The notes under the pieces: model-generated
What the model saw: only the letters and a program-made list of their open reading frames with translations
Database searches by the model: none
Told to the model about the DNA's origin: nothing
Shown: piece by piece, positions 1,838 to 53,800 of the stretch
Layout: every line of letters begins with the position of its first letter
Numbering within the stretch: the stretch's first letter is position 1
Made by a program: the position numbers and the translations under genes
Assembly (NCBI GenBank): GCA_918797485.1
Contig: CAKKNE010000006.1
Coordinates: 558,001 to 622,000, forward strand
Length of the DNA stretch: 64,000 nt
Direction: 5' to 3'
DNA from: Pelagomonas calceolata
Taxonomy: Eukaryota

Positions 1838-3305
1838 ATGGCCACGCGCTTCCTCGAGGTCCGCCTGAGTGGCATCGGCCCCGACGCCTTCGATGCGGCC
1901 GCCTTCTATAAATCACAGCTCCAGGCCACACGGACCGTGCAAGTCGCGCGCGTCGAGAAGGGGATGAAGGGCGGCACGAAGATTTTGCTTAGTGGCGACG
2001 CCCGCGAGTGCACGCAGCTCTTCATTAAGTATCAATCAAAGACGCGCTTCATCCACCAGGGCTCTCAGGTGCAAATGTGGGCGCCGAACGCTCCATTACA
2101 TCAAGCTCCTGTATCAAAGCAGAAAAAGCCTTCGAGACCCACGGCGTCGCAGTCGGACGCAGTGCGCAATCAATTCCGAGCTTCACGCCATCGACGCGAC
2201 GTCTTTTGCACACAGGTCGTTCTCGCGCACGCGACGCGCGTCGGCGAAGGCGCCGCGGTCCATGGTCGATATTATTGATGATTTAGGGCACGACATCTTA
2301 CCGTTGCAACGGGCTTTCGACGAGGAATGTGCCGTAGACGAGCGGACGCCTACGTTGAATACACGTAGCAGAGGCGCTCGCTCCGCAAGTGGTGTGGAAG
2401 ACGACGCGCAGGTCATCCCGCTGCAAGGCGCGTTGCGAGCTTTACGTAGAGCAGGCACGGAAGTGTCCAGTAAGCAGGCCGAGGACGCGCTGAAGGCGAT
2501 GGGCGCGGAAGATCGGAGGCTCACGCTCGGATTTGACGACTTTTTGCGGTTGCACGACATGGCCCGTGGTTCCAAGAATGCTGGGACGCGTAAAATCTTC
2601 CAGCGGTCCGTGCTGGTCGATGGGAATAGATCAAGGGCGGAGACTAATGTTGAGGCCGTGTTAGGGGAGGGGAAAATTGCCCGCGGGAGCCTGCTCGCGG
2701 CGACGCTGACGGCGTCCCTGAACTTCGAGGCGGACGCTGAGGATGACGAAAACAAAGCTGAGGAGGAGGAGGAGCCCGAGGTCATCAAGGGGACCGTCCG
2801 CGAGGAGACCATTGGGAGAAATACTGTACGCGAGGAGGCGCCGCCGACGCGACCGCGACCCAAAACGCAACGTTTGAAAGACGCCTTCGGCAAGCACGAC
2901 CTGTACGGCGACGCCGCCGCGCCGGGCGAAATCTCCTGGTCGTCGTTACCTGCCGCTTTAGCGGAAGCCTGGGGCCGCCAGGGGCCGTCGCCGCAGGAAT
3001 GCGTGAGAGCGGCCGCTTCCATAGATATCCCGCCGCACTACCCCGTGTCGCTGGCGGACTTCAAGCGGCTGTCCGAGGCCCTGAAAGGTAGGTTCGAAGC
3101 CGAACGTGTGGAAAGGAAGAAGGATTTCGACGACCAAGTGACTTCCAGGGTCGATACCCAGCGCGTGTCCTTCGGCACGACGAAGCGCGCGGCGACGATC
3201 AAGGAAGAACCGGGCGTCGCGAAGCACGACGACGCCACGGAGCCGATGATGGACCCCGAGATTCGAAGCATTCGACGGCTGGCGATGAAGCAGAGGTATG
3301 GTTAA
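1838..3305 (+). CDS. Hypothetical protein with degenerate EF-hand-like segments; 2 exons (intron 2152-2215)
   Basis: ORFs 1550..2278 and 1992..3305 join in frame on removing a 64-nt GT..CACAG intron (...TASQ|SFSRTRR). 'LGFDDFLRL' and 'VSLADFKRL' resemble EF-hand exits. Confidence 0.6.
2152..2215 (+). mobile_element. 64-nt introner-derived intron
   Basis: GTCGGACG (decayed TSD; GTCGTTCT on the other side), then CAGTGCGCAA...TTGCACACAG TIR remnants. Core ACGCCATCGACGCG at 2185-2198. Removal restores the frame. Confidence 0.75.
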
Positions 3306-5641
3306 ATTTTCTGGAAATACGCGTGCGTCTCGTAGCCCCCTCTCCCGCCAATAGCATCGATCGTCGGGTGCGGCGCCGGCAGGACGTGGAGTTCCTCGGG
3401 CTTGCCTTGCAAGAAGTCGCGGCACGCGTCGTAGGCCCCCGGAAAGATGCCGTGGCGCGGCAAGTCCGGAGAGGTCACGTCGTCGACCACACAAATAGCG
3501 CCCGGGGCCAACCTGTCGTAGATGAGCTCGAGCGCGTCCGTGATCGACGCGTAGAGGTCGCCGTCGACGTGGGCAAAGCTCAGTTGCGACGGCACCTCAC
3601 CTTGCATCGAGGCGAACCAGCCCTTATGTATTGTGGGCTCCGGTAGATCTAGCTTCCGAAAAGTGTCCCGCACATCATCAGGCGAGCAACACATCGCTCC
3701 GGCAGTCTGATACGCAGGCGGGTCCTCGGCCGTGCCTTGTGGCAGCCCCTCGAAGGAGTCGTAGACGTGCAACGGCGTCGCCGGCCGGTGCGCCCTTAAT
3801 ACACTCTGCAATAACGCCGCCGTGACACCTTTATTACAACCTGTGCACAAATCAACCAGTGAGTCGAATGCTCCGCCACACCGTCGAGCTGGCGTCGCGT
3901 CGATGGCGTGGAGGCCATTAGGACGCGCCGCGACAATTTATGCACTGGTCATAACCGAGCTCCGCAACCGCGCCCGGTACGTTACGGTCGATCGTCCGCC
4001 GCAGCAGCCAGTAGATGTTGAGGAGCTTGCCCTCGCCGGCCATGTTGCCTTCCACATCTTGTAACGCGGCGCAAAGGAGCGGGCTGCCGTCCCGTACCGC
4101 TTTTTGTACAGCTTCTGAGGACGGCACTTGCTTCGTCGTGCCTTGCTGTTGATACGCTGATAGAGCAAAGGTCAAGAATGAAGGCACATCTAGCCCGCGT
4201 TGGCGCGCGTCGAAGGCCAGTTGTTCATAGGTCGCGACTTGCTGGCGCGGTCCGCTCCCTCTCCAATCTTGTAGAGCGAGGTCCGTCCGCGCCGACCCGC
4301 CGCGGCAGCCGCTCCACAGTTGTGAAACATCCGTCTGGGTCTTGACCGGCAGCCGTCGCACGAGAGGGAGTACTGATGCCGTCGCGATTCTCAGTAGAGA
4401 TGGAGCGTAGAAGCGCAACCTCAGACCTAATGTAGCGAGCGCCGCCCGTTTTTTCTGTTTAGGGGCCGGCCGCCAGCTGATGACCAAATTCCCCGGCGCC
4501 GTCAGAGGCAGCTCGTCCGCGACAGAGACCTGTGTGTGATATATGTCGAGTCGCGATCTCGCCCCCAACGCGTTCGGCGAGTCGCGTCGATGGCGCGTCG
4601 ATGGCGTAAGGCCGCCGGAAGGCCACAGGACGCCGCGATCAGTACCTCGCGGCCGCGCCTCTCCATCAAAGACGCGAACTCCGTGCCGTTCATCGCCTCC
4701 GCGTGGACGCCGTGGTTCCAAGTGACAAAGCCGTAGGGCGTGCGCTGGGCGAGCCTTACCTGCGCGGAGCATGGCGGTCGCTCGACTCGGTCCGAACGGC
4801 CCCAAAATCGGAAAAGAAACCACCCACGACCTCCTCTCCCGGAGACGAGTCGCGTCGATGGCGTGAAGGCGCCGCAGCACCGCGGGAAGGCGTCTCTACA
4901 CGACGGGACGCCGAGTCTTACATAAGGTTTCTGGATCTTTCTAGGTAACTCGGAAAGCGCAAAGTTCGAATGGAACACATCAAATTTCTCCTGGAACAAG
5001 TCGTGGTCCCTCAGAAAGCGCTTGCCCGTCGTGAAGCGCTTCGAGCGGTCCGGTGGGAGTGCTCGTTGAATATACTTCCTGCATAATCGCTGCACTACTC
5101 TCAGATCGAGCACGCGATAGTGGGCAGCGGCTCGCTCCCCGGCCAGACAGACCTGGGCCTGGCCGCCGTAGCCGCCGCCTATTTCCACAATTTTTTTGTC
5201 TGTCAGTGGACCACAAACTTGTTCCATATCACCTCTGACGCAGACGTACCGCAGCTGCGTCGGCGAGACATTTCCCCATTCATTGTAGTCGTAAGTGGAG
5301 GGCGAGCCGAGTTTTGACGATAGCGTGACCGCTTCTCGAATGCCCTCGTCTTCGAAAAGTGACGGGTGGTCTATTTTGAGGCGGTGCTCGTAGCACCTAC
5401 CGACATCATAGGAGACGTGTTCTAGGACGTCTTGGTAGGCCGCTTGGGCTTTGAATTGTGAGAACGCTTCGTCGTCGTCGCAGGCTCGCTGGCAGACTCG
5501 TTCGTACTCGGCGTAGCGGTCGGCCAACGTATCAGCGTTGTCGTACACAAAAGGCTGCGTGCTCGCTTTTAGGGCGGTGCGGTGGCGTAGTGGTGCTAAT
5601 GCAGTGCACAGCGGCAGGAGCAGTGCGGTTATGCGACGCAT
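3302..5641 (-). CDS. Secreted/plastid-targeted tandem methyltransferase: putative sugar O-methyltransferase domain + TylF/MycF-like O-methyltransferase; 4 exons (introns 4760-4921, 4530-4645, 3841-3955)
   Basis: N-terminal signal-like MRRITALLLPLCTALAP. SAM motif IVEIGGGYGGQ and SNFALSEL. After splicing, VAELG|CNKG, YDSFEGLP, KGWF, HVDGDLY, VDD (TylF signatures). Frames of the three ORFs reconcile with intron lengths 162/116/115. Confidence 0.75.
3841..3955 (-). mobile_element. 115-nt introner-derived intron
   Basis: Minus strand GTTATGAC-CAGTGCATAAAT...CGACTCACTGGTTGATTTGTGCACAG. The 3' end nearly matches the 50103-50303 element. Core motif at 3896-3909. Removal restores AELG-CNKG. Confidence 0.85.
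4530..4645 (-). mobile_element. ~116-nt introner-derived intron (alternative GC donor at 4636 gives the same frame)
   Basis: GTACTG...CACACAG on the minus strand. Tandem core motif at 4583-4607. Removal joins RGRE|VSVADELP. Confidence 0.7.
4760..4921 (-). mobile_element. 162-nt in-frame, stop-free introner-derived intron
   Basis: Flanking direct repeat GAGCCTTAC (4751-4759) / GAGTCTTAC (4913-4921). GTAAGA donor lies in the repeat; GCGCAG acceptor. Core motif at 4851-4864. Translated duplication VRL...VRL. Confidence 0.8.
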
Positions 5642-5920
5642 GGCTGCACTAGGTGCTTGTGCTGCAGCAGTGACGGCAGCACGAGCCGTGAGCGCTCGGA
5701 ATTGATTGATGCACAGTACGGTGGTGCTGCGAGGCAGGTCAGCGCCGTGTGTAGCGCACCGCTGGCGTCGCACGCGCTCGGCCACACTCGACACTCAACC
5801 TCAGCTGCCAAGGCTTGGCTCGGCTGGCGTAGGACCCTTCCACTCGTCATCGCGGGCAGGATGAGTCGTGGGGAACCCCAAAATGCGACTGCTATTTCGA
5901 TCTTGGAAAACCCGTGCGTG

Positions 5921-5942
5921 CTAGTGTCTTACTGGACGCTAG
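5921..5942. promoter_or_regulatory. CTAG-bounded conserved upstream element (copy 1), divergent promoter
   Basis: CTAGTGTCTTACTGGACGCTAG between starts 5641(-) and 6080(+). Confidence 0.65.
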
Positions 5943-6079
5943 CGTGCTCGGGACTCGAACTGGAGTGTTATCCAGCGAATTATAAGCTGCGGGTGGCCAA
6001 TTTTCACATCAAAATCTCCCACCAGCTGTCCTATGGCACTGTGCACGTTTGCAGCCGAAACGGCCGACTAGTCGCCACG

Positions 6080-9000
6080 ATGAGTTTTGAAAAGGGCGAC
6101 GTGTCGTCGTCCCCGACCGATGACGCGGCGCCGGAGGGCGAGCCGGCGCCTGACGCCGCGCCATTGCCACCGCCCCCCGTGCCGGCGTTCCTGGAGGGCG
6201 TTTCCGCACCGACAGAGCCTCTCGCGCCGAGCACGGTCACCGCGCCTTCTACGGTCGAGGAGCTCCCGGCCGCCGCGGCGCCGCCGCCGGCCGCCGCGCC
6301 GCCGTGGGCCAGCGGGCCGCCGCCTCCAGCCGCCGCGCCGCCGCCGGCCGCCGCGCCGCCGCCGCCGGCCGCGGCCGCCAAGCCGCCGTGGGCCTGCGGC
6401 CCGCCGGCGCCGTCGAGCCCGGAGCCGCCGCCGCTCCCGGCCTCCGTTATCGCGCGCGCGTCGCCGCTCGGCGCCACGCTGCCACGAGCGTCGCCGCCGC
6501 GGGTCCCGGTCGTGACCCAGGCGTCGCCCCTGCCGGTGCCGGCGGCGCCGCAGCCCGCCGTGACCGTGCCGCGAGCATTACGCGAGCTCGCCGCGCACAA
6601 CACGCCCGCGACCACGACGGCGCTGATGGCGGCCGCCGCGCCACCGCCACCTCCACCAGTGACCGGCCTGCGCTTCAAGGGCGGCGTGTCCTCGGAAACG
6701 GCCGCGGCGCTGCAGCGCGCGGGCGCGGCGCCGCCGCCCCCGGCCGCCGCGGCGTCCGCGCGGCCGCCGTGGGCCTCAGGACCACCGGCGCCGCCGTACA
6801 GCGTCGGCGATTTGGTGGAGGTCAAGCCCGACTGGTCGCCGGGCTGCAACCGCGAGGGCGGCCCCGGCCGCGTCACCGCCGTCAACAGCGACGGCACGTA
6901 CGACGTCAAGTACTCGTTGGGGAGAGGCACGATGCAGGGCGTCCCGCTCGCAGACATGTCCATCCCGTCCAAGCAGAGCCAGGGCCCGGGCGAGGCCGCG
7001 AAACGGTCGCGGCGACGGCAGCCGACGCGGCGCTTCAGCGAGCTGGCCCAGGACGGCCAGAACTACGGCGAGCCCTCGGACGAGCCGCCGCCGCCTCCCA
7101 AACGACGGCCGAAGAAGAAGCGGGCCCTCGCGGTGGCCATGGGCACTGATCTTAGACCTGCGGCGGCGTTACAGAAGCCCGCTGCCGTTGCGCAGCCGTC
7201 CCGACCAAAAGATCCTCCGTTACCTCCGGGCTTGTGGGGCTCGTCCGAAGCACTCGTGTTCAACACTACGAACCCGAAGCGGGGCATGTCCGCCGAAAGG
7301 TATGATAGGTACAAGGCGGCGACTACTGTTGCCGAGTTCGCTCAACTAGGTGGGTCTACTTCCGACTTGAGGTTTGACTTAGCGCGAGGGTATGCTCGCG
7401 TCCTCAACCCGGCGATGCAGCCCGCGCCGTCGTCGCCGCGAGGTCGGCGGTGTGGTGTCTGTGCCGGTTGTCTCGCGCAGGACTGCCGGCAGTGCCCGTT
7501 CTGTCTAGATCAAAAACGCTACGGCGGGCCCGGCAAATTACATAGGACGTGTCAACGACGGAACTGCGAGGCGCCATTACCGTCCGCACCTCCTCCGAAT
7601 GGTGTCAAGCGCAAGGCACCCGTTGTTCAAGAGCCGAAGAAGCGAGGCCGGAAGCCCGCGGCGAAAGCACCCCCGGTAGCACCGAAGCCGGCGCCGAAAC
7701 GATCCCCCCAGAAGGTGCCGGATAGAGCAGGCTTGGAAGCGAGGATGACCGCCGACGGCTGGACGCGCGAGGAGAAGCCTCGCGAGGGCTCGACGCACGT
7801 CGACAAGTACTTCGTGCCTCCGAACGGTGGGAAGAAGCTACGCTCCATCCTGGAGGTGGCCCGCGCCCACTACCCGTCGTTCATTGTCCAACAGAAGGTG
7901 GCACCGCCTCGACCGCTGACGGGGACCTCCGCTCCTGGTCATGTGTGGAACCAGAACGAGCCGGAGGTCGACGAATTAACTGGTGTCGCCTACCAGCCGT
8001 GTGGGGTGTGCAAAGGTAAAAAAGGTGGCGAGTTATTGATGTGCGACGGGAAGGATGGGACTTGTGATAGGACGGCGCATACGGGCTGCTTAAATAAAGA
8101 ATTTCCGCCCGAGGGCGACTGGTTCTGCGCCCAGTGCCGCGCGGCGGCGCAGATCGCGTCGGCGCCGCCCTTCAAGAAGCCCACGAAGAAACGTAAAAGT
8201 GCTGCGAAGAAGGCTGCCGATCTACAACGGTTGGGTCCCGAGCCCCGCGTGCGGTTTAACGATAGCGTGACGGTGATCCAGTGGAAGGCGGCGCCCCGGG
8301 CGGCACCGCGGAAGCGCGGCGAGCCCGTGCTGGAGGACGACGCTACTCGAAGGGCCATTGCGGCCTCTCTGGCTCAGTATAATGATGATGATGGTAGCGA
8401 GTACTCTGATGACTCCGAGGAGCCCGACGACGACGACGGCGGCGAGTGGTCGCCTGACGTTCCAGCGCCTGTTGTTCAGAAGAAGAAGCCTGTGGTGAAG
8501 AAGTCGCCGCCGCCGCCGCCGCCGGCCGTGCTCGAACCGTTACGAGTGCCATCACAACGCTTCGCCGTCGGCGCTAGAGTAGAAGCGCGCTGGGAGGGCG
8601 AGTGGTGGCCGGCCATCGTCGACCAGGTCTGCGAGGACGCCTACGAGGTCGAGTGGGTCGAGGAGCCCGAGGTTTTTAATCGGCTGGATCTGGAGGACGT
8701 GCGGGCCGCTCGAGCGTCGCCCCACTTCGTGGCCGCGCCGCCGACCGTGCCGCCGGCCTGGACTAATGCAGCAGCCGCGCTCGCTACGAGTTCTCCGCCG
8801 TCGAAGGGCGGTACAATACGGCAGCCGTCGCCGCTCGCGGCCTCTCCCACGCGCGTGGTCTCGCGGTCGCCTCCACCTGTTGTACAAGCGCCGCCCTCGC
8901 CGACTGCTGTTCCCGCCGCGACGGGCCGCTGGGCTCCTGCCGCGCCGCCCGCGCCTTCCGCTCCGGCGACGTGGCCGCCGCGCGCGCCGCCGGCGCCATT

Positions 9001-9205: not shown

Positions 9206-9232
9206 CCAACCGATCGTTTTATTACTACTCAT

Positions 9233-9613: not shown

Positions 9614-10076
9614 TTTTCAGTGCTTTGTGGCGCCGACGCGCTTGCAGCGGGTGCGACGACTCTTGCTGCACCGTAGGCGGCCAGGCTTGTTGCCCTCGCA
9701 GCCTGATTTTGTGTAGTTTGATGTTGTGCCACTGTGCCCACACAGCTGCTGCAATGACCACAGTTGTTGATGAACTCACTTCCGCAGCAAAGTATGAGTA
9801 TGTAGCGCTGCTCGAATGCGTCAGCGGTGCTTCTCGCTGCCCTACTGAGGCGGCTGCAGCGGTGTTGGCATAAGACTTGACACCAACTTTTGTCAAATTT
9901 GGGCGGAGGCGTCTTGGGTCTGCGGTATCCCTGAGGAAGCCCTTTGACCAATAGAGGACGAGATAGGCGCCGAAAAAAGCCAAAAAATGGAAACGCGGGC
10001 CGCGCCCCGCGCGTCCACCAACTCAAGCGAGACAACCCCCCAAACGCCATCGACGTGAGTCAACAACACACACTAG

Positions 10077-12410: not shown

Positions 12411-12412
12411 GT

Positions 12413-12580: not shown

Positions 12581-12597
12581 AAACAAAACACAATTAC

Positions 12598-14082: not shown

Positions 14083-14252
14083 CCCGCATCGATTGTCCGC
14101 CCGCCTTAGCCGTGCACACTGATCGCCAGCGCCTCGTCGTAGTCGCATCGATGCAACCTCCAGCGCTGCGCAGAGATCGGCAGTCGTGCGACTCGCCACT
14201 GCTGTGAAAATGGGCACATTGTGAGAGCACCACTTTTTACGCCATCGAAGCG

Positions 14253-15333: not shown

Positions 15334-15339
15334 CATTAT

Positions 15340-18697: not shown

Positions 18698-20867
18698 ATG
18701 CAACGGCGCCCCCCCAGCTCGCCGATAACGACACCGCCTCCCGGATACTTCGATCCACCACCGCCGCCGCCGCGTCCGCCGCCGGGCGCGCCGTTGCCGC
18801 CCAGACCACCTGGTCCACCGCCGTATCAACCACCGCCTGGCGCGTTCCTGGCCTTTCCGCCGCCGCCACCACCACCACCTATGACGTCGCCCTTCGCCGC
18901 GGCCCTCGCCGAGTTCCCACCGCCGCCGCCGCCCCTCGACGCCCCGGGAGCACCGCCGCTCGAGTCGTCGCGCATTTTGCAGTCGCCGCTCGAGCCTCGG
19001 CCCGTGCCGCCGCCGCCGCGCACGCCGCCACCCGGCAGCAACCCCTGGGACCGGCCGCCCGGGAGCCCGCAGACGCTGCTCTTCCGGACGCCGCCGCCGG
19101 GACCTCCACCGGGCCCGCCTCCCTTATCAGCTTTCAGGACGCCGGGCGGGCCCGGTATCCCGGGCCCGCCGCCCGGACCGCCGCCGCTCAGCGCCCTCCC
19201 GGGCCCTCCGCCGTTGCCCGGGCCGCCACCGTCGCAACCGCCTCCAATACCGGAGCCGCGCGTGCTGCCGCCCTCGCCGTCGCTCGCCACGACGCCGTCG
19301 AGGCCGGTCGACGAGGACGCCGCCGTCCACGAAGCGCGAACAGCATTAGATGAATACGACGCAAAGGTAGCCAAGGAGGCTTCCAGTAGAGACAACGCGT
19401 CCATCTCGTTACTCATAAGAGCCCTCCTCGACGCGTCGGAACGACGCGCGCGGGACGACGCCTGGGCCGAAGCTATTATAAGGGACGCCGTGGCCTGCTA
19501 CGCGGGCGAGGACGGGAAGTGGGGTTTGAGGGAGTGGCGGTGCTTCTGCCGCGATGCGCGCCTCGAGGAGCCGACGCCGGCGCCCGAGCTCATCTGGCTC
19601 ACGTTGTACGATCGGGCGGCGACGTCGGGCGGCGGGTGTGCGCTGACGCGCGTCGTGCGCGCGGGCATTGCCGACGAGCGCGCCGACGAGATGCAAGTCG
19701 TGGAGCTCGTCGAAGCGCTGAGCGCGGCGCATCTTGCCGCTCGTTCCATGACCGAGGATATTGATCAATTCACGTGGCGCTTGTTGGCGCCGTGTGCCGC
19801 GCGCCATCGGAACGGAGGCGGGCCCGGCGACGCGCGGAAGCTCGGCGCGTGCGACGGCCGGACGCTCGACGTCATTCTGGAATCACTACCGGCGTTGTGG
19901 GTGCTCTTCGGGGCCTACGCGCGCGACGGGCATAATAAGAGGGCGCCGCAGGACTTTCTGGACGCGTTCCCGCTGAGCGTGCGTTTTGCCGCGTCCTATT
20001 TCCGTCGTTTCCCTACCGCTTCGTGCCTATCGACGCGACGCATCTTGCGACCTCCGCGTCGATGGCGTCTCTATCCCCTCCACACGTCGCCGACGCGACC
20101 GCTTCCCGTCCGCCGTCTGTCTTTCCCTATCGCTTCGTACATATCGACGCGACTCGTCTTGCGAGCTCCGCGGCGATGGCGTCGAACCCACACAGGCCAA
20201 GGTCGCGGAGAAGGCCGCCTCGGGCGCGGGCGACGGCGACGCCGCCTTCGAGCGGGAATTACGACGGGACGGCGTCGCGCCCGCCGACTACGCACTTTCA
20301 TTGACGCCGCAGCGCTTCGTACTGCTGTGCGACGACGTCGGGCTCTCGGACGTCTGCGCGCCCGGCCAAGCGCTGGCCTGCGCGAAGCGCGCGAGAGTGG
20401 CGCGTGCAGCGAGCTCGCCCAAGCAAGCGCCGCAGCGCGCCGCCTTCCAGTCTCCCCTCCTGAAAACAACCGCGGCACAGCGGCTCCGGGAGCGGGCCGT
20501 CGCGAAGCGGCGCCAGGAGCGGACGAGGGAGACGGACACGAACCTCGCCTTCACGTGTTCTTCGTATCGAGCCGCGCCGCGGCCGCGACCTCCCACCGCG
20601 ACGACGCCGCGCCTCGCGAAGGTGAAAGGACTGTCGTTCTGCGAGTTCGTCGAGGCTTTGGTAAGCCTCGGTGACGCCGCCCTCGCGGCCGACGCGCACC
20701 TGCGGAGCCTCTACCCGTCGCCGCCCGAGCGCTGCCGCGCCATCTTCGACGTCTGGTGCCTCGCGGACGTCTGCGACGAGGTCGCCGCTCAAGCTGTCGC
20801 GAGCGCGCCTCGGCCGCGGTGGCGGAGTTCTTTTGCCGCGCGGCCGACGCGCGTTTCTCGCAGCTAG
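18698..20867 (+). CDS. Proline-rich hypothetical protein with EF-hand/p25-like helical segments; 2 exons (intron 19979-20195)
   Basis: A 217-nt GTGCGT..CACACAG intron joins ORF 18683 to ORF 19986 in frame (FPLS|AKVAEK). 'LSFCEFVEAL' motif. Confidence 0.7.
19979..20195 (+). mobile_element. 217-nt introner-related intron with internal ~62-nt direct duplication
   Basis: Core-motif variants. 20008-20068 is repeated at 20122-20183. Ends in CACACAG like the family TIR. Confidence 0.7.
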
Positions 20868-22096: not shown

Positions 22097-23611
22097 ATGC
22101 AGAGGGTTGTGTTAGCAATTTGTTTGGCCGGCGCGGCCGGCCTCCTTGCACCGCAATGCGCCGTGCGTGCGCCGCGGGCCGTCCTGCGCGCCGAGGCCGC
22201 CGAGGCTCCGGCCGAGGCGACCCCTGCGCCGACGTTCAAGGTGATTGACATTCCGTCGGACAAGTGCGCAGCAGCGTAGAAACAAGAGAAACCGCCCTTG
22301 AGACGGCCGCGCCGCCCGGGTTCGAGTTCGCCACCCGGGGCGCCAAGACAACAAATGACGCCGCCGCCGGCCGCATACGCCGGCGACGCGACAGTACATC
22401 GACGCCGAAACGCCACCCCGACGTCGTCGACGCCCGCGACGCCCGCGACGCCCGCGACGACCGGACCGCCACCCCCCCGCAGGCCCAAAGAAGAAAAAGA
22501 AGAAGAAGTAGTGGACCCCAAGGCCGAGGAGGAAGAATTAACGAAGAACATCAAGGGCAAGCCCATCATGGGCGTCTCCGGCTTCTTCAACGATGCCACG
22601 CGCAGCGACCAGCGCGTCCTGGACGTGCTCCACGCGCAGAACGTCTGGGGCGCCATCGTCGCGTTCTCCGACGACATGGTGGCCAACAAGAAAAGACTTA
22701 TGAGTCGTTCCGCGCGCTACTCGGGATTACTTGGAGTGTTGCGCTTCGGCGAGCTCAACTCCGGAGATGTGGCGACGTCCCTGGAAAACGCGGAGGTCCA
22801 GGCCTGGCTGGCCTTCGACGTGGCTCCCACGGAAGTCGGGGCTACTTTACAAGCTGCTATTAAAGCTAAAACTGTGGAGCGCGTCGTCGTCGCGTCGACG
22901 GGACCGGTCCCGGACGACCAATTGAAGGTCGTCGAGGGTGAAGATATTGACTGGTCCGTGGTTTCGTTCGACGTCGCGGCGTTGGCTGATGATTTACCGG
23001 AGGGCGGTCCTCTAGCTGTTGATCGTGATAGCCAGGACCTGGCCTCGGCCATTTCTCGGGATGATGCTTGTAGGGTCGTCGCGGAAGCGTTCGTCCTGGA
23101 ACCGGCCACGAAGAAGCGCTTCGTCGTCAGCAATGGTGGGGAGATGTCCGCACTTTATTTGAGATCTTTGAGGGAGCAGGGCTTCTCGCGCCGAGCGGAA
23201 CTCGGCAAGCTCATCCAGGGCGACATGGCCGCCTTTGAAGAGGCCCAGAAGCCCAAGGAAGAGGTCGTCGAAGAAAAGACCGAGGAAGAAAAGAAGGCCG
23301 AGGCCATCGACCGCGCGAAGGAGTACGAGGAGCTCTTCGCCGAGTCGCGCAAGCAGGCTGCCGAACAAAGAGAACGGGCCATCAGTGCCAAAGCTCGGGA
23401 GTGGCTCAGTGGCCGCTGGGAGGCGAAAAAGTACTCGACCGCCGCGGGCATCGACGTCGAGGCGTACATCGAGGAGAACTGGGCCGAGGGCGTCAAGGAG
23501 GCGTCGGCGATCCTCGGGTATACGAAGAAGAACGCCCAGGGCATGAACGTGGACGATGACGACGATGATGATGATGATGACGACGACGACGACGACGACG
23601 ACGACGAGTAG
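22097..23611 (+). CDS. Plastid-targeted NAD(P)-binding Rossmann-like protein with acidic tail; 2 exons (intron 22264-22482)
   Basis: Bipartite-like leader MQRVVLAICLAGAAGLLAP. A 219-nt GTGCGC..CCGCAG intron removes the stop (PSDK|PKEE). 'AISRDDACRVVAEA' is SDR/NmrA-like. Confidence 0.7.
22264..22482 (+). other. 219-nt spliceosomal intron with 9-bp tandem repeat (CGACGCCCG)n
   Basis: GT..AG ends, frame-preserving; repeat at 22428-22463. No clear TSD/TIR. Confidence 0.7.
23552..23605 (+). repeat. (GAY)n trinucleotide repeat encoding poly-Asp
   Basis: GAC/GAT run just before the final Glu codon and stop. Confidence 0.9.
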
Positions 23612-23794
23612 GCGTCCTTCCCGGCTAACTATTGTATACTTATAGCCTTCTCTCGCGGCGATGGCGTATCATCGGTGTTTGCTCGTGCTGCTACGGTAAC
23701 TGTCTCTTGTGCTTCGTGGGACGTGTAGACGTGTCGCGTCGATGGCGTGCGAGTGGTCGGACTCGATGTGGTACCGTAATACATATATCGCTTG

Positions 23795-30529: not shown

Positions 30530-32145
30530 ATGGCCTTCTTCCAAAGCGGAGACAAAGAAATAGTTGTGGACGACGACACCGTCGAACCCTACGAGAGCCC
30601 GCTCGCCCATCAAAAGTCGTACGACGACTTCAGTGCAGTACAAGAACCCAAGGCGAGGCAAGGCCGCGTCTATCGCCTCCAGCCCGCCGTGAAGCAGTAC
30701 GCCTGGGGGATCAGAGGAGGTGATAGTCGCGTAGCCCGCTATGGCTTAGAAACGGGCGCGTTAAAAACGATCGATCAAAGTGCTCCTTATGCGGAGATCT
30801 GGCTCGGCACGCACCCCTCTGGGCCTTCATTATTAGATGATGGGACTGAGTTATCCAAAGTAGTCAAGGGCGGCAACCTACCTTGGTTGCTGAAAGTCCT
30901 CAGTGCCGGGAAAGCCTTGTCCATCCAGGCGCACCCGGACAAGTCCCTCGCGGAGAAGCTCCACAAGGACAAGCCCGACTTGTACAAAGACGCAAACCAC
31001 AAGCCCGAGATGGCCATCGCGCTGACGCCCTTCGAGGCCATGTGCGGGTTCCGGCGGCTGTCGGAGATTGCGGTCCACTTGCGCAAGCATCCGGAGTTCG
31101 CCGCTTGTATTTCGACCGAGGCGCAGCTCGCCGTCTTCACGGCGGGGCCCCGCGATTCGAAAGCGCAGAAACTGGCGTTGCATAAAGTGTTCGAGTCGTT
31201 TATGGTCTGCAGCGGTGTCTCTCAGAAATTTCAACATGCGGCGCTCTGCTCGATGGCGTCACGTGGATTCTACCCCACCGCCACGCCATCGCCGCGACGT
31301 CGACGCGACGGCTCACCGGTCACGCAACGCAGGCCTGCGAGCCCGACGTCTCGTCCGCCCAGCTCAAGCTCTTGGTCCAACGCCTAAGGAGGGAGCAGCG
31401 CGCCCAGTTCCGGCCGAGCGGCGCGCAGCACATCAACCCCGCGGCGCCCGTCCTCTCGCCCGGCTCCGCGGCCAAAGATGATGAGGTCCCCGAGAGCGCC
31501 TGGGAGCGGAAGGCCGCGCGAGCTATTTTGAGATTGGAAGAGCAGTTCCCGGGCGACGTCGGGGCCATGGCTCCGTTGTTTCTCAACTACTTATTGATCG
31601 CGCCCGGAGAAAGCTTCTTCATGGCTGCGAACGAACCGCACGCCTACGTCGCCGGAGAAATCCTGGAGTGCATGGCGTGTTCCGATAATGTGGTGCGGGC
31701 CGGACTGACGCCGAAGATGAAAGATGTTGATAATCTCGTGGACATGCTGACCTATAGCATGGGTGGCCCTGACATCGAGTTTGGTCGATTAGTCCACCAG
31801 GGGCCTGGTACTCGTACCTTATGTTATACTCCCCCAGTCCCCGAGTTCGAAGTACTCATTACGACGGTCGAGACCGGTGCTACTTATGATATCGCTCCTT
31901 GTGAGGTTCCTTCTATATTAATCTGTGTGGAAGGTATCGGGCATACTCAAAGTGCTCCTGGGCCTGATGGGGTGGAGCCCCAAAGAAAACATAGATATGA
32001 ATTGTGCCCGGGCAAATCGCTCTATATCACGGCGGGCACCGTGGCGCTGACGCTCGTCAACGACATGACCACGAAAGGACCGCTGCGGGTCGCGCGGGCG
32101 CGCCAGAACCTGAGCCTGGCGGGGCGCGCGGAGGACTCCCAGTGA
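30530..32145 (+). CDS. MPI: Mannose-6-phosphate isomerase, type I; 2 exons (intron 31205-31332)
   Basis: QYAWG, PYAEIWLGTHP, LLKVLS..KALSIQAHPDK, DANHKPEM, NEPHAY, ECMACSDNVVRAGLTPK. A 128-nt intron joins the frames (ESFM|ACEPD). Confidence 0.93.
31205..31332 (+). mobile_element. 128-nt introner-derived intron
   Basis: GTCTGCAG vs downstream GCCTGCGA (decayed TSD). Core ACGCCATCGCCGCG at 31283-31296; CTCAC branch-like motif; CGCAG acceptor. Confidence 0.8.
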
Positions 32146-32391
32146 TTTCGCGGCGACGGCGTACAGCTTGCGTAGACGCGAAGGATGCCGCGGCGATGGC
32201 GTGGGGCGGCGGCTAGCTCTGCCTCTTGTAACACAACAAATATTCGTCGGTCATAGATATGGCGGCTTGGTGGCTAGGCGGCCTAGCTCTAAGCAAAGCA
32301 GATATAATTCGAATTAGAAATGGGACCGGCGGGTATTGTACGCGCCGCGAGGTCCGCATTTGTGCTCGAGCGGAGCGGAGCGAGCGATAGA

Positions 32392-44881: not shown

Positions 44882-45103
44882 TCTGCTTAGGGCCGCGGAC
44901 CTCACGCTCGCGTGCCCACGACGCCGCGCCTCTCAGGCGGGCGGCGTCTCTGTACACAACTCCATCGACGAACGCCGCGGACGAATGGCATCGCCCCCGG
45001 GCAATCGACGACGAGCCCGGCTTCCCCGATGAGTAATATACCTCTCATCTTCTAGCGTCGAATCTCAGGGTACGCCATCGCCGCGACTTATTAAAACATA
45101 ATA

Positions 45104-46170: not shown

Positions 46171-46191
46171 CTAGTGTCTTACAAGCGCTAG
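46171..46191. promoter_or_regulatory. CTAG-bounded conserved upstream element (copy 9), divergent promoter
   Basis: CTAGTGTCTTACAAGCGCTAG between 46036(-) and 46393(+). Confidence 0.65.
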
Positions 46192-46392
46192 GTTAATGAT
46201 CCAGGAGCTTTTTTTGCGCGCAGCCCTCGGCTCGGGAGCTATCTGCTATCTCCCGTTTAATCTACACGAGTACGTACTTCGTTCATTCCGCCCTGCAATC
46301 GGCACGAGCGCTTCACGCCCGCGTTCCACACAACTTTTGACCTTGTAAAGTTACTCAGGGTCCGAGTCAGGGAGTTACAACAAAATAACCTG

Positions 46393-46728: not shown

Positions 46729-46747
46729 GTAACACAAACGATACACA

Positions 46748-47779: not shown

Positions 47780-47971
47780 GTATGCCTTGCGATCGCTGCT
47801 GCAGTTTGCAGCCCTGAGAGCAGGCAATACAAGTTTTGCTGCTCGCTTTCGAGGTTGCGTTTGGTGTAAGCAGGAGCCGCAGAGATCAAAAGTATTGCAG
47901 AAAGTGGTGTGTGTGGCCCGTATGCAGCGTATTTCGAGCTGTACGGCTCGTCAGCCGAGCTTGCTTGCTTG

Positions 47972-47993
47972 CTAGTGTCTTACATGCCGCTAG
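47972..47993. promoter_or_regulatory. CTAG-bounded conserved upstream element (copy 10)
   Basis: CTAGTGTCTTACATGCCGCTAG, about 190 bp upstream of ATG 47779(-). Confidence 0.65.
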
Positions 47994-48029
47994 TAATTAC
48001 CTGGGGGCATAAGTGACTCTCTCTCTCTA

Positions 48030-49322
48030 TTACCCAACCCCTAGCCTCCCATACGTCTCGAGCCCGATGATCGCCGTCGCGAAACCAGCGATCGCGCCGA
48101 GACTCGCGCGCCCACCGGGGACCGCCTCCGGCACCGCCTCGTCGGCGTCAAGCGCCGCGGCGCCGTAGCGCGAGCCCCACGCCATCAGCGCCGGGACGAC
48201 TCCAAACAACACAAGGATACCGTACACGCCGGCGAGGTCGACGGCGGCGAAAAAGAGCGACGGGTTGCCGAAAACAGCAGCTATCGCCGCGGGCGGTGCC
48301 AACGCGGCGGCCCAGAGGTACGGTGGGCGGTTGTCACCTTCTAGCCCTTCCAGATCACCGAAAAAATCCACCAACCCTGTGGCGAAGCCCAGCAAAGACG
48401 TTCCGACAGCAAGAAGGCTAAAGTACAAAATGGCGGTGCCGAAGTCGTCGCCCGACGCCCGCGCGAGGGCCATCGGATCAATCGACTCGCCGGCCACATA
48501 CGGCGTCGAACCGAGGACCACCACCGACCACGCCAGGAACATGCATAGTGGAATCGTCAATCCCACGAGAACGGCCCGCCGCACCGCTCCCAGGTCGCAC
48601 TGGAGGCGATAGCATAGTGTCGGCACGACCGTCTGGTACACATAAACAACGGGAATCACAGGGAGAGCTGGAGCGATGGCGGACCAGTCCGCGCGCGTAA
48701 GCAACTCGGGATCGACGCGTGAGATGCCACCGGCGACGATGTAGCAGAACGAGGCGACGACGCCCGCGGTAAGCACCGTGTTGAGGCGTTCCACCGTCGC
48801 CGGCGGGAGCAATGCGGCAGGCGCGCCTATCGAGGCGGCGAACGCGGGCGCCGCCGCCAGCGTATCCGTACCACCAAGTGCCTCGCCGAGGAGTTGACCC
48901 CCTTGCACGACATATGCCGTGAGCAGGCAGTAGTGCAGAAACAAAAACACGGCCGACGCCGCCGTCGCGCCCGCGTCACCCAACGTCTCCTCGGCCATCG
49001 AATTAATGGACACCGCGTCCCGATCGAGCACACACGCAGTGTTCAGATCAACCTCCGCGATGAGCAAGCCGGTGGCAGCCATAAATAACCAGCCGCCGAT
49101 CAACAGAGTCGCGGTCGGAGCCAGGCCCGCGGCCAGCGTCTTCGCCGGTAAGGCGAGGATGCCCGCGCCAACAGTCGTGCCGGCCACGAGGGCGGCGCTG
49201 CCGAGCACTGTTCCGGGTGCTTCGTCTGGCACGGCCCGGAGCCTCGACCGCGAGAGCTGTCGCGGCGGCGGCCTGAAGAGCTGTGATGGCTGCAGCAGCA
49301 GCGCGAGCAAAATGAGCCTCAT
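48030..49322 (-). CDS. tyrP: Aromatic amino acid permease (TyrP/HAAAP family), probably plastid-targeted
   Basis: GSAALVAGTTVGAGILALP, TGLLIAEV, LHYCLLTAY; signal + transit-like leader. Confidence 0.85.
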   Translation of the reverse strand: MRLILLALLLQPSQLFRPPPRQLSRSRLRAVPDEAPGTVLGSAALVAGTTVGAGILALPAKTLAAGLAPTATLLIGGWLFMAATGLLIAEVDLNTACVLDRDAVSINSMAEETLGDAGATAASAVFLFLHYCLLTAYVVQGGQLLGEALGGTDTLAAAPAFAASIGAPAALLPPATVERLNTVLTAGVVASFCYIVAGGISRVDPELLTRADWSAIAPALPVIPVVYVYQTVVPTLCYRLQCDLGAVRRAVLVGLTIPLCMFLAWSVVVLGSTPYVAGESIDPMALARASGDDFGTAILYFSLLAVGTSLLGFATGLVDFFGDLEGLEGDNRPPYLWAAALAPPAAIAAVFGNPSLFFAAVDLAGVYGILVLFGVVPALMAWGSRYGAAALDADEAVPEAVPGGRASLGAIAGFATAIIGLETYGRLGVG

Positions 49323-49546
49323 CCTTCGGTGCTACGGCAACATGTGGTCAGAAATGTATCGCAGGAACGCCGTACCGCTCGACAGGCGCACTAGGTGGGC
49401 GCACCGAGCTGCCAGATTGACATGCTCTCTTTTGGCAAAAACAGCTCTCTGTGGTTATTGATTGCAAGCGCTCTCGGGGCCAAGCGGTCAACGGGGCTAT
49501 CAAGCAGTCTCATTGATCTATCTTCGACCGCCCCGCAGCAAAGAGC

Positions 49547-50853
49547 ATGCGCGCGATGGGTCATCAATTGCTGCTGGCAAGCTGTCTCCTCTCCATCACC
49601 ACGCACGCGCTCCAGTCTCCCGCGCGGACGTGGCACGACATCAAGTGGACGCCCACGAGCATGCGCTACTACGCCACGCGCCCGCCCAAGGACCTGCCCG
49701 CCAATAATCAGACGACCTTCGTCGCATGCGTCCGACACTTCCTCGTCAAGCGCCGGCGCGCGCTCCTCTACGTGGCGTATTTCGCCCTGGGCGTCGCGCC
49801 GGCGAAGGCCGTGCACCACGACAAGTGGACGGCGCTGCGCCAAAAGCCGGCTGACCTCGGCGGCATTCGGACGAGACGGCGGCGCGCCCAGGCGATCTCG
49901 CAATTCGCCGGAATTGGCTACTCGCCGCGCGTCGTGGCGCTCGCGGGCTTAATGCTCCGGGCGCTGGTCAAGTGTTTTAGGGCACCTCTCGAGCCGTCGA
50001 TCGGCTTCGGGGTGGGCACGAAGCTCGCGGCTCGGTACGCCCATCGGGAATGGCTGCCGTGCCTCGTGCTTGGGTGGTATGCGGGCGGGCCCCTGTGGGA
50101 CGCTGTGCGGAAATCAAAATTTTACGGCGCGTTCGTGCTGAATCGCCGCGTCGTCCTCCACGCCATCGACGCGACGCCTGCTCGATGGCGTGGCGATGCC
50201 GGTTCCTCGCCGCTCGACCGAGCCAGGACGGCCGCGTCATCGCCTAGAAATGACTTCGTGATGAATTGTCGGGTGCCCGACTCACTGGTTGATTTCCACA
50301 CAGGTGGGACGTCCTGGACGTGAAGCCGCCGGCCTGGAACAAGGGCGTCCCCATCGTCGTGAATCGCGTGCGTCCCGGCTGGAAGTGGCCAACAAGGGGC
50401 GGTGCCCTGATACAGCCCGGCGTCTGGGAGCAAGGCGCGCCGCGCGAGTCGAACGCGAAGCTGCTCTTGGATCTGCGGGCGGAGATGCCGGGCGAGAGGG
50501 CGGCGGAACAGCGGCTGCTGACTTTGTTCTATGCCACACGAAGAATAGTCGATGCGGCCGGCCGCGCATTGCCGCAGGGGCAGGCCGTCGACGCGTGTCT
50601 ATACAACGAACCGTTTGACCGCGGCGACGCCATCGGCGCGGGAGTACCTTGCCTCCTCGAAGCGGATGGCGCGCTCGTCGTCGCCAAGGATCGAACGCCG
50701 TGGGAGTTGAGCACGTTCGAGCCCGCGACTGATTTCGAGACGCTCGAGAAGGCCCTGGCGTCGGCGGAGGCGGTAGCCATCCCGCCAGACGCACGGCTCT
50801 GGGCATTCGCGCTGACCGGCGCGACGAGTGACGAAGAGAACGATTCCTTCTAA
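49547..50853 (+). CDS. Hypothetical signal-peptide-bearing membrane protein; 2 exons (intron 50095-50303)
   Basis: A 209-nt intron joins ORF 49547 to ORF 50320 in frame (GGPL|WDVLDVKPPAW). Confidence 0.75.
50095..50311 (+). mobile_element. Intact introner element: 8-bp TSD + 201-bp non-autonomous TIR element
   Basis: TSD GTGGGACG at 50095-50102 and 50304-50311. TIR CTGTGCGGAAATCAA (50103-50117) / TTGATTTCCACACAG (50289-50303), 14/15 match. Confidence 0.93.
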
Positions 50854-50895
50854 GTCTAGTATGTATCAACTTAATGGGGAACGGGCGGAACTCTA

Positions 50896-53800
50896 CTACG
50901 CCTCCATCGACGCCGGCGACTCCACGGCCTTCATGCGCTTGGCGTCGGCGTCTTCAGTAGTCGGCGCGGAGCGCTTGCGCGACCGCGACTTCTTCGGTTT
51001 CTCTGAGGCAGTCACGCTCGCTCTAGGAGAAGACTTGGGCCGCGAGCGGCCGTCGAGGTCGCTGTTCTCCTTCTCGACGAGCTTGATCAGCAAATCGGCG
51101 CGCCGTCCGAGCTCCGACGCGTTTCTCGACTTGAAAAACCAGTCGAAGTTGAACTGCCACGCGTTGCGGATCTCGACCCTAATTCTCTCCCAGTTCCCGT
51201 ACCCGTAGGTGTGCATCATATTGAGCAAAAATGCGTCTTCCTCCTCGGTCCAGACCTTGCCTCTGGAGGCGCCGTAGTTCAGCGGCAGGCACTCGTGGGG
51301 TTTCGGCGACCGGGCAATCTTCTCAGCCAAAGCTTCCCTAATCTCCTTCGACCGCTGCAGGCGCTTCTCGCCCTTCTCGATCTTATCTATGACGCGCTCC
51401 CAGTCGGCGAGCTCCTTGTGCCGCTCCCAGAAGACTTTGTGATAGCGCCGCACCTCCTCTTCAGTCTTCCCCGTCTCGTTCGACGTCTCGCGCGCGATGA
51501 CGTCGACCTCGTCGCGCCCGCGCCGCTCCATGGCGTTCAGGAACGACCGGAAGTCCTTCCTAGTCCTGTGTGGAACGGACGCCGTCGCGAAACGGCCGCG
51601 GCTCCCTCGCGCGACCCGTAGACTCTCATGCGGCCGCGTCGACGGCGTCGAGGCGACGCGGCATCGCATCGATGCCGTCGCGACGACCACGTCACGTTGA
51701 AAGTCAACATATATATATATATACATCTCCACGCCGAGTCGCGGACCAGTCGACAAAGCCCTCCCGCAGCAGCTGCTCCTTCTTCTCGAGCTTCGCGCCC
51801 GTCAATTCATATGAAGAGCCCTTCTCGAGCTCCTTGGCGACCTCGCGCGACTGCTGGAGGTGGGCCTCAGCCTCAGCGCACGGACTCGGTTCTTGGCCCG
51901 CAGCTTTCGCTTTGGCATTGGCCTCGTCTTGCGCCTTCTTGCCCTTCTGCTTGAGCTCGCGCGCCAGCGACTGCGCGTCCTTGCGGCGCTGCTCGAGGCG
52001 CTCCTCCTCCTGGACCAGTTCTCCGAGCTCTTCTCTGTTAAAGAACTGGAAATCATGCATCGCCGGTCCTTTGCGCTTCTTCTCCCGCGGCTCCTTGCGC
52101 TTCTTCGAGCCGTCGTTGAGCGTGTCGCGGAAGTACTCGTCCACATCATAGTTGCGCTTGCGCTCGCGCGTCGGCAGGTTGATGAGTAACCCGGCGCCCT
52201 TGGCTCCCCGATAATTGGCGCCCTCGAACTCGAACAAGGAACCAGGAGCCGCGTCTTGCGTCGTGAGCGAGAAGTTCGCCAGGTTGTGCTGCGCGTCCGT
52301 CTCGATCTTCTTGTTCTGCTCCGCGGTCCGTTCCTCGCCGCGCTTGAGTAACACGTCAATGTCCTCGTCCGTGAGCTGCTTGGACTTGGACGCGAAGATC
52401 TCGTCGGCGCCGAAGCGCACCATGGCCATGAGGTCCTGTTTATTGACACTAGTGTTCTGCTCGGCCAACCGCCCCTGCTGGATGACGGCCGCGTCTAGGA
52501 ACAGCTTCCTATCAGCTCTTTCTACAATCTTCTCCTCGACCGTGCCCTCCGTCACGAACCGAAAGACCGTCACGGGCTTCGTCTGGCCGATGCGGTGCGC
52601 GCGGTCCATCGCCTGGAGATCGACCTGCGGGTTCCAGTCCGAGTCGTACAAGACGACGATGTCCGCCGTCGCTAAGTTAATACCGAGGCCGCCCGCTCGC
52701 GTCGACAACAAGAACGCAAATTTGGGCGAGTTCGGCGCGTTGAACGTGTCCATCTGCAGGTCGCGGTCGTCGCCCGACGTCGACCCATCGATTCTACAGT
52801 ACGCGTAGCGCTTCAGCCGCATGAAATCCTCCAATATATCGAGCATGCGCGTCATCTGCGAGAAGATCAATACGCGCGACTGCTGCGCCTGGAGCTTCGG
52901 CAGCAACTTCGACAGTAGCACTAATTTGCCCGTGTTCTCCCAGAGATGAGGCCCGTCCAAAAACGGCGGCCCCGGCTCGGCGCCCTCAAACAGGTAGGGG
53001 TGGTTGCAGACCTTCCTCAGTTGCATGAGGATGTTCAGCAACCGCACGCGGTCCGGCCCGCCGAGCGCGTTTAACGTGTGCGCGTCCTTGCTCAGGATCT
53101 TCGTGTACCAGAGCCGCTGCATCTCCGTGAGGCCGATGTATAATTTAATTTCTCGTTTCGGCGGTAGGTCGGCTTCCACGTCGCGCTTGATGCGCCGCAA
53201 CATGAACGGTCTCAAAACAGTGTGTAACTTCTTAACGACGTTGTCCTTCGCGCCGCTGTCTCCACCTAAACTGAACCAGGTCTCGAAGTCCGCTTCTGAC
53301 GAAAAGATGTCTGGCAGCAAGAAGTTCAGCAGAGCCCACAACTCGTTCAGGTTGTTCTGGAGCGGCGTGCCCGTGATCAACAGTCGGAACTGCGTCGGGA
53401 TCGTCCTAACGATACGAGATAACGACGAGTTCGGGTTCTTGATGCGGTGCGCCTCGTCAATGAGCAAATAGCTCCAGTTGATCTTACATAAAGCTCCCTT
53501 CTCCTTAAGGACGCCCTCGTACGACGTCACGCACACGTCGAAGCTCTCGGGGTCCCGCAAGTCTTCCCGGATGCACCGCGCGCGCTCGTGCTTGTCCCCT
53601 AATAATTTAACAGGCCTCATGGTAGGGCACCACTTGCGCATCTCGCGCATCCAGTTGTTGACCACACTTTTCGGCACGATGCAGATGTGGGGGCCGTGGA
53701 TGTTTTTTGTTTCCGCGAGGTAGGCTAGTAAGGAGATGGACTGGAGGGTCTTGCCGAGGCCCATCTCGTCCGCCAAGATGCCGTTGATGCCGTTATCATG

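Follow-up and report, generated by a model that had tools for sequence, protein, structure and literature searches.

Introners are usually recognised only when young, and the fraction of ordinary introns that derives from them is an open question. This question is raised by a 64,000-nt stretch of Pelagomonas calceolata DNA (contig CAKKNE010000006.1, positions 558,001 to 622,000; hereafter the window), in which the introns share a 14-nt core with an intact element: are these introns former transposons, and what has kept the core in them? A motif that outlives the terminal inverted repeats (TIRs) would serve as a fossil tag, permitting introner-derived introns to be counted by a single genome scan in an alga that ranks among the most abundant of the ocean.

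Introns of the window and the intact introner

All eight introns listed in a preliminary description of this DNA proved to be real, with exact coordinates (Table 1). They are GT..AG introns on the strand of their own gene (introns 3841, 4530, 4760 and 51566, named here by their first position, on the minus strand), they end in C[A/G]CAG as had been claimed, and the frame across each junction is open again once the intron is excised. Seven of seven junctions examined were joined by RNA reads or RNA contigs, with read support in two runs of 25+19, 9+2, 6+0, 4+0 and 12+7 for introns 2152, 3841, 4530, 4760 and 19979 as a group and of 31+20 and 6+2 for introns 31205 and 50095 as a group. For intron 51566, which lies outside both stretches examined for reads, a 60-aa spliced junction peptide exactly matches transcript protein P0001. 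A ninth intron, overlooked in the preliminary description, was pointed to by an ab initio intron scan (25 candidates with imprecise ends, too noisy for counting); it was assessed with homologous proteins rather than reads, and these continue straight through the junction.

Table 1. Introns, parts of the reference element and cores outside introns in the window
Position	Strand	Feature	Evidence
81..223	-	Element remnant outside introns, behind stop codon, with left TIR, core and arm 2	
2152..2215	+	Intron, 64 nt; remnants of both TIRs, perfect core, TSD 5/8	RNA
3841..3955	-	Intron, 115 nt; deletion derivative, family group of 50095; perfect core, TSD 5/8	RNA, alignment
4530..4645	-	Intron, 116 nt; core doubled in tandem, TSD 3/8, partnerless outside core	RNA
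4760..4921	-	Intron, 162 nt; separate family (~80% like copy in L017 flank), perfect core, TSD 7/8	RNA
10044..10057	+	Bare core, antisense, 19 nt behind stop of minus-strand gene	
14239..14252	+	Bare core immediately 5' of ATG of plus-strand ORF	
19979..20195	+	Intron, 217 nt; ~115-nt internal duplication, full cores antisense, TSD 2/8	RNA
22264..22482	+	Intron, 219 nt; contains in-frame stop, left end resembles a TIR, core at 22377 with 2 mismatches, TSD 4/8	Homologous proteins
23654..23748	-	Two bare cores, antisense, 42 and 123 nt behind stop	
31205..31332	+	Intron in phosphomannose isomerase (PMI), 128 nt; core with 1 mismatch and arm 2, TSD 5/8	RNA
32149..32202	-	Two bare cores (2 and 1 mismatches), antisense, 3 and 43 nt behind PMI stop	
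45072..45085	+	Bare core, antisense, 18 nt behind stop of minus-strand gene	
50095..50303	+	Intron from intact introner, TSD 8/8	RNA junction; see text
50095..50102	+	Left TSD copy, supplies GT donor	Window TIR+TSD scan
50103..50117	+	Left (donor-side) TIR, 14/15 complementary to right TIR	Alignment
50160..50173	+	Core 14-mer, arm 1 of internal inverted repeat	Sequence
50182..50191	+	Arm 2, reverse complement of the core's first 10 bases; predicted pairing with arm 1	Fold prediction
50279..50303	+	Right end: presumed branch-point-like CTCAC, right TIR, acceptor AG	Sequence
50304..50311	+	Right TSD copy, stays in exon	TSD scan
51566..51746	-	Intron in ISWI remodeller gene, 181 nt; third family, matching L076 flank; core with 1 mismatch, TSD 4/8	Transcript protein

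Intron 50095 was the only match with a complete target-site duplication (TSD) in a scan of the window for TIRs plus TSDs. It holds an intact 201-bp element (50103-50303) whose TIRs are 15 bp and whose TSD is 8 bp long; the CTCAC of its right end we take to be branch-point-like, by consensus rather than by mapped position. Reads of other copies terminate at 50103 and 50305, and among 120 anchored matches, similar sequences spanning the whole intron fell at 89 separate sites. Among metagenome copies, the strands of which were called from the flanks alone, 32 of the 35 in sense orientation have a TSD beginning with GT or GC, and 13 of the 16 antisense ones have a TSD ending with AC or GC. These copies show that the acceptor AG can be provided by either inverted end and the GT/GC donor by the duplicated target; one TSD copy is excised with the intron, so that the reading frame is restored. 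The elements show several features of introners of the DNA-transposon type, namely repeats at unrelated sites, TIRs, which are eroded in the older introns of the window, a TSD, one co-opted splice site and clean removal. The reference copy also carries a small private deletion, which upset a right-end length measure. One Rfam match on 50000-52000 was discarded, its score being far under the gathering score.

Such elements have already been published for Pelagomonas calceolata. The available passages of Guerin et al. (PMC9481584; preprint 10.1101/2021.10.25.465678) report 956 putative elements with a length peak near 210 bp, a GT or GC donor, an AG acceptor and conserved TIRs; the window elements come from the same species and, matched by description rather than by sequence, are very likely identical to these. 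According to the same passages, 15% of introns are >90% repeat-covered, in contrast to the core in nine of nine introns here. The passages are silent on an internal motif, deletion in place, a change of the second base and copies outside introns; the supplement may show the motif. Literature searches by title and abstract start gave no paper on the 14-mer motif, which Huff 2016 may show, and a search for four element words gave none relevant by title among the matches listed. The abundance of the core, its outlasting of the TIRs, its slower mutation and its bare copies outside introns look new.

In the portions of PMC10368747 that were available, hAT MITEs and Hermes ends are characterised by an 8-bp TSD, 15-17-bp imperfect TIRs and short bidirectional internal repeats. 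The window elements share the 8-bp TSD and short TIRs of hAT MITEs, but the Hermes subterminal repeats are many and 4 bp long, whereas the core has 14 bp and persists without the ends. No transposase family was recognised among 36 window ORFs, and no autonomous hAT partner was found among these or in six long copies (259-445 nt), the translations of which were read by eye. The introners of Aureococcus anophagefferens, treated by Huff, Zilberman and Roy in 2016, are reportedly MITE-like DNA transposons of a pelagophyte that carry one splice site and obtain the other from the TSD; compared by description only, they resemble the window elements in pelagophyte host, MITE type and TSD-co-opted splice site.

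Abundance, families and orientation of the core

With at most one mismatch, the core occurs 19 times in the window against 0.17 expected, namely ten times in introns (1,411 nt), eight times in other non-coding DNA (14,826 nt; <0.1 expected) and once in coding DNA (47,763 nt). The claim that the introns bear the core or close variants held for all eight and extends to the ninth; the eight non-intronic copies, seven of them without TIRs, had been overlooked. In a rank test, used in place of a letter-shuffled control that was dropped because it wrecks the CG content, the core ranked first among 15,544 non-coding 14-mers and shared first place among 14,324 non-intronic ones. Without the reference element, the window contains 18 core copies and at most one copy of any terminal 14-mer, and the corresponding counts in 68,371 nt of unselected flanks are 33 and 13. 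That the core outlasts other element parts, as was proposed earlier, is also seen in introns 4530, 4760 and 19979, where it is perfect and the donor-side TIR is lacking. Single arms are kept alone in introns 2152, 4530 and 4760. Outside introns, bare cores often lie just behind stop codons, in most cases antisense relative to the gene end closest to them; they may never have belonged to an element. A viral scan with an extended core gave seven matches, none inside an element and five in one phage-like coding motif; scans of viruses for the right end and of prokaryotes for the hairpin gave no match.

The preliminary description had assigned the introns to one element family. When the core is masked, only introns 50095 and 3841 align with each other, introns 4760 and 51566 each match another family, and no convincing partner was found for introns 2152, 4530, 19979, 22264 and 31205. 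Several families have to be assumed instead, at least three of which share the core without aligning in other parts. The same ends, often with a TSD of 7-8/8, occur in a sister family of 11 copies that has no core; the core is therefore not required for mobility in general.

As had been stated, the core usually reads in the sense of the transcript, in seven of the eight introns first described and in eight of nine with intron 22264. The bias is modest in metagenome copies (sense:antisense 35:16, p 0.011), which were chosen by a perfect right end that inflates the sense share; they are mutually non-independent and possibly from several Pelagomonas-like lineages, and their introns were predicted from reading frames, not RNA. 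The bias probably has its source in the right end with its branch-point-like signal and not in the core.

Decay after insertion

Same-site alleles differ in length (152/103, 165/113, 200/189/181, 160/127 and 119/111 nt), showing that shrinkage follows insertion. In such metagenome alleles the steps from transposon to intron can be read directly, and the view that the window captures transposons becoming ordinary introns finds support. This idea is in print for fungal introner-like elements, which, in the available passages of PMC3609843, decay, in length as well as sequence, into regular-looking introns and have a stable predicted structure. The fungal elements lack the TSDs and TIRs that the window elements have, so that the latter do not belong to this type, and the passages mention no surviving internal motif, unlike the core here.

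A transposon origin is also supported by the TSD residue across the nine introns, which was reached by 34 of 362,880 permutations (30 of 40,320 without the intact copy). The acceptor-side TIR scores higher than the donor-side TIR in seven of eight introns, in agreement with its claimed better survival; in the donor-side TIR, the second base is often changed. The joint erosion of TSD, 5' TIR and length that had been described was not found: intron 4760 has a donor-side TIR that scores 4/15 alongside a TSD of 7/8, the 64-nt intron 2152 still aligns to the element across 70% of its length, and length is uncorrelated with TSD identity (rho 0.08, n=67). A graded decay series is thus not supported, and length is not a guide to age.

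Deletions in other copies stop just upstream of the right end. The gap ends at the right-end block in 33 of 45 copies, and reads of other copies on 50103-50303 rejoin at 50275-50281 in seven of the eight same-strand joints listed; microhomology at breakpoints is barely above random (~1.2 vs 0.7 nt). Under a strict deletion null with the right-end deletion fixed, 1994 of 4000 simulations reached the observed value in subfamily A and 148 of 4000 in subfamily B, so that shielding of the core from deletion is gone in subfamily A and weak and marginal in subfamily B. A first null with random gap placement (7, 0 and 1 of 5000) was rejected as too lenient, since it ignored the right-end hotspot. In alleles L026 and L019 the core was wholly or mostly lost in place.

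Private substitutions were counted at 10 of 403 positions in the core and 3 of 338 in arm 2 compared to 87 of 1842 elsewhere (p 0.043 and 0.0003), and the value for the loop (9/259) was not significant. Arm 2 has the lowest rate, and the core mutates about half as often as the flanks. In same-site allele pairs, no significant protection was seen (2/72 vs 46/922, p 0.57).

What retains the core

The preferred reading, to which we give a probability of about 0.55, is that several related non-autonomous DNA transposon families gave rise to the introns, as spliced-out copies and likely remnants, and that the core is likely a putative DNA-protein site under selection after immobility. An origin as an internal site for a transposase, or for a host factor exploited by the elements, is suggested by the inverted pair and by its presence in families that differ elsewhere. 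A host DNA-binding or chromatin factor would now retain the core. Copies at one site differ by internal deletions, most of them running up to the branch-point-like end. The occurrence of the core in both orientations, its non-intronic copies and the lack of both core arms in 14 of 53 predicted introns point to a role in DNA rather than RNA.

It is unlikely that the core is a subterminal transposase site only, which seems to persist because many separate, fairly young families carry it and which decays neutrally once a copy is immobile. The 8-bp TSD, the short TIRs and internal words in both orientations, as described for Hermes in the portions cited above, would fit such a site, as would its sharing by otherwise non-aligning families and the allele pairs. 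Perfect cores, however, remain in introns that lack a donor-side TIR and have a TSD of 2-3/8, and reads of other copies cover these introns at the core only; most non-intronic copies lack TIRs, and the TSDs of the sister family without the core are fresh.

The splicing enhancer considered earlier, or an RNA hairpin aiding the spliceosome, is improbable. The prevailing sense orientation, the conservation of both arms but not of the loop, the pairing of the arms in the predicted fold (z -2.8) and a distance of 3-50 nt between core and acceptor in several short flank introns would speak for it. The core is nevertheless neither restricted to introns nor always sense: eight copies lie outside introns, 16 of 51 oriented elements are antisense, and intron 19979 is spliced although its full cores are antisense; it also holds partial sense copies. 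Core-less introns, lone arms and the bare copies behind genes also weaken this option. A core without any function, recopied as the commonest segment by ectopic gene conversion and local duplication and spared in the left half by the right-end deletion hotspot, is about as improbable. A swapped internal tract in same-site allele L057 and core duplications in introns 4530 and 19979 and in L036 speak for such events, and the hotspot alone accounts for retention in subfamily A. Bare 14-mers, though, would have too little flanking homology for conversion, the TIRs are almost traceless despite being present twice per element, and the copy count peaks at the exact 14-mer (10, 18 and 14 at offsets 57, 58 and 59).

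A wider form of the preferred DNA-site reading is possible but doubtful. The 14-mer would be a putative DNA signal of host chromatin or of a general regulator, spread by an introner superfamily, selected by the host after element death and flanking about one gene end in seven; most Pelagomonas introns would be transposon-born, compared to the reported 15%. Domestication would be repeatable, with mutation of the donor-side TIR at its second base and collapse of the interior toward the branch point, leaving the motif. If the motif has a host function, introners would have seeded a regulatory site of DNA throughout the genome. Only seven candidates came from a frame walk along the flanks, two of them short element-derived introns without the core.

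Element structure, splice sites and the reality of the introns

The reference element (50103-50303) has terminal inverted repeats (TIRs) of 15 bp, matching at 14 of 15 positions, and an exact target-site duplication (TSD) of 8 bp; the intron that contains it consists of the left TSD copy and the element. Scanning of metagenome contigs with its last 25 bases yielded at least 121 loci, and 120 usable matches among those listed, six of them without the left end, were grouped into 89 sites. Elements at least 300 nt long, flanks below 100 nt and five doubtful end calls were excluded, which left 70 site representatives. According to flank coding alone, 35 of these were sense, 16 antisense and 19 unclear; selection on the right end inflates this 35:16 sense share. 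The sense bias would likely be due to the CTCAC at the right end, which resembles a branch-point consensus. The TSD starts with GT or GC in 32/35 sense copies versus 6/16 antisense copies, and it ends with AC or GC in 13/16 antisense versus 8/35 sense copies. Therefore, either element end can serve as acceptor and the TSD provides the donor, which shows that insertion and splicing follow the introner route. The consulted portions of the introner literature describe the same mechanism. Such elements of Pelagomonas calceolata are already known: the preprint that describes them lists 956 putative copies with GT/GC donors, AG acceptors and TIRs (10.1101/2021.10.25.465678), and the published article assigns 15% of introns to them (PMC9481584).

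The window has a GC content of 63.8% and densely packed genes. All eight introns proposed in the preliminary description are GT..AG on the strand of their own gene, and once they are removed, the reading frame is open again across the junction. RNA mapping covered 420-20400 and 31050-51040 (40 of 64 kb) with four RNA runs per stretch. Raw reads and RNA contigs join all seven intron junctions in these stretches, and no further canonical splice joint was among the joints listed for them, a listing that extends to all but 9 and 70 weaker joints. The eighth junction, in the ISWI remodeller gene, was found spliced in the transcript-derived protein P0001, which is 100% identical to the ISWI protein of the window over 220 aa (Aureococcus homologues: 66-83%). 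The 90% cluster of P0001 includes a P. calceolata protein, and the window is taken to come from this species. Thus, the eight introns are real. A ninth, overlooked before, is predicted because homologues of its gene (22097-23611) continue unbroken over the junction. All nine contain the core, eight with at most one mismatch, and all end in C(A/G)CAG, in line with the acceptor ends first reported.

The second TIR base at the donor side is not T in 15/35 sense copies versus 0/16 copies using that end as acceptor (p = 0.002). Six of these 15 belong to a CAG-starting subfamily, in which the change may be inherited. The base varies between alleles clearly at two sites and at a third beside a neighbouring deletion, and two antisense flank copies carry the change at the opposite end. 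Pairing of the acceptor A is predicted at 0.91 with T at this position (n = 21) and at 0.16 without it (n = 18), so one reading would be that the acceptor is freed from the TIR stem; another is immobilisation of the element, because an excised copy would likely leave behind a footprint that shifts the frame. Donor-side changes were seen in the metagenome copies L007/L036 and L081/L065 and in the flanks of L047 and L098.

Decay and relationships of the copies

Internal deletions distinguish alleles of the same site (152/103, 165/113, 200/189/181, 160/127 and 119/111 nt), which have therefore been shortened after insertion. This bears out the view that transposons are turning into ordinary introns, a decay of introners known from fungi (PMC3609843). 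The graded decay series originally suggested does not hold: element length does not vary with TSD identity (rho 0.08, n = 67), and one of the copies with a perfect TSD is just 54 nt long. Deletions reaching to within 8 bases of the right-end block occur in 16/19 copies of subfamily A and 17/26 of subfamily B; the search pattern rules out only deletions past that block. In RNA reads of other copies, which are unselected by the pattern, 7/8 same-strand joints listed rejoin at 50275-50281, some of them from other subfamilies. Deletion ends are concentrated some 30 bases inward from either end of the element, at element positions 167-176 (window about 50269-50281), 16 and 31-34.

The assignment of the introns to a single family had to be abandoned. 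Once the core is masked, 50095 and 3841 are the only two window introns that align to one another; 4760 resembles a copy in the L017 flank (about 80%) and 51566 matches one in the L076 flank, and no convincing partner was found for 2152, 4530, 19979, 22264 and 31205. Intron 2152 keeps remnants of both TIRs. The anchored copies form at least three core-bearing subfamilies, and a sister family of 11 copies has the same ends and lacks the core. TSD residue in the nine introns amounts to 43/72 bases versus a permutation mean of 28.7, reached by 34 of 362,880 permutations (30 of 40,320 without 50095). Judging from this residue and the common acceptor ends, the older window introns look transposon-born.

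Long composite copies (L008, L011, L007/L036, L038, L055, L059; 324-445 nt) are nested or fused elements, and two of them, L008 and L011, include a stretch resembling intron 4760. L057 differs from its same-site alleles L094 and L027 in a 35-nt internal tract resembling copy L079, possibly by ectopic gene conversion. By eye, a word like GCGGCGTCC lies near the donors of the older introns 3841, 4530, 4760 and 19979 and of flank introns of L020, L069 and L090; it matches subfamily B at positions about 20-30.

Features of the window and copies of the core-less sister family
Feature	Position or copies	Remarks
Core (arm 1)	50160-50173	14-mer
Arm 2	50182-50191	
Intron	2152-2215	
Intron	3841-3955	
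Intron	4530-4645	
Intron	4760-4921	
Intron	19979-20195	
Intron (predicted)	22264-22482	left end TIR-like; core with 2 mismatches
Intron	31205-31332	
Intron	50095-50303	
Intron	51566-51746	
Element remnant	81-223	
Motif CTAGTGYCTTAC	5921, 23795, 26493, 40330, 46171, 47972	either strand; six intergenic regions
Intronless gene	5900-9205	zf-CXXC, MBD and PHD domains; CG-reading protein type
Inverted repeat	12065-12220/12413-12568	156 nt, 83% complementary
Short ORF	26625-26826	signal-peptide-like start, early stop
Variant-rich stretch	33375-33860	adjoins ORF 33934-35211 (no Pfam match)
Coding repeats	55939-57057, 61346-62458	seven FG-GAP units of 162 nt; 300-nt duplication at 91%
Core-less sister family	L014, L017, L027, L048, L049, L053, L060, L079, L082, L096, L098	137-200 nt, length more uniform

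Persistence and possible role of the core

The core forms the first arm (arm 1) of an inverted repeat inside the element; the second arm follows 8 bases further on, and the two are predicted to pair. Near-copies were counted for each of the 188 14-mers of the element. The core has 18 in the window apart from the reference element, against at most one for terminal words and none for the median 14-mer; in 68,371 nt of flanks unselected for the core, the numbers are 33, 13 and 3. It is the most repeated of 15,544 non-coding 14-mers and shares the top place among 14,324 non-intronic ones. Private substitutions are rarer in the core (10/403, p = 0.043) and in arm 2 (3/338, p = 0.0003) than in the rest of the interior (87/1842); the loop (9/259) and the left TIR (6/252) show no significant departure from this rate. 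Same-site allele pairs show no significant difference of this kind (2/72 versus 46/922, p = 0.57), and two alleles have lost the core in place. Retention is 0.71 versus 0.27 at the mirror position; with the right-end deletion fixed, it is as expected in subfamily A (1994 of 4000 simulations) and marginal in subfamily B (148 of 4000).

Non-coding DNA other than introns (14.8 kb) contains eight copies of the core, against fewer than 0.1 expected from Markov models; one is within the element remnant and the others are bare. An antisense core stands within 150 nt of the stop at 5/33 gene ends, four with at most one mismatch and three between convergent genes. Two gene ends have a sense core, namely that of the remnant and a copy common to a convergent pair.

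A splicing enhancer, as had been considered, is disfavoured: 8/38 sense and 6/15 antisense predicted introns have neither arm (14/53), and 19979 is spliced although its full cores are antisense, so that a requirement of the core for splicing is unlikely. A role as transposase site alone leaves the perfect cores in TIR-less introns and the bare copies unexplained. Therefore, a putative DNA-binding site maintained by host selection is favoured, possibly one with an earlier use in transposition. In the introner literature searched, with Huff 2016 and key supplements lying outside the search, no report was found of the persistence of the core or its copies outside introns, nor of the hotspot of deletions or the change at the second TIR base.

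Other repeats in the window

The second most repeated non-coding word is CTAGTGYCTTAC, which may be a promoter element or another small repeat. Reads from other loci pile up at the inverted repeat, possibly another repeat family, and numerous variant reads with small indels at 33375-33860 suggest multi-copy sequence. The short ORF, a possible pseudogene, has what is presumably a sulfotransferase-like motif.
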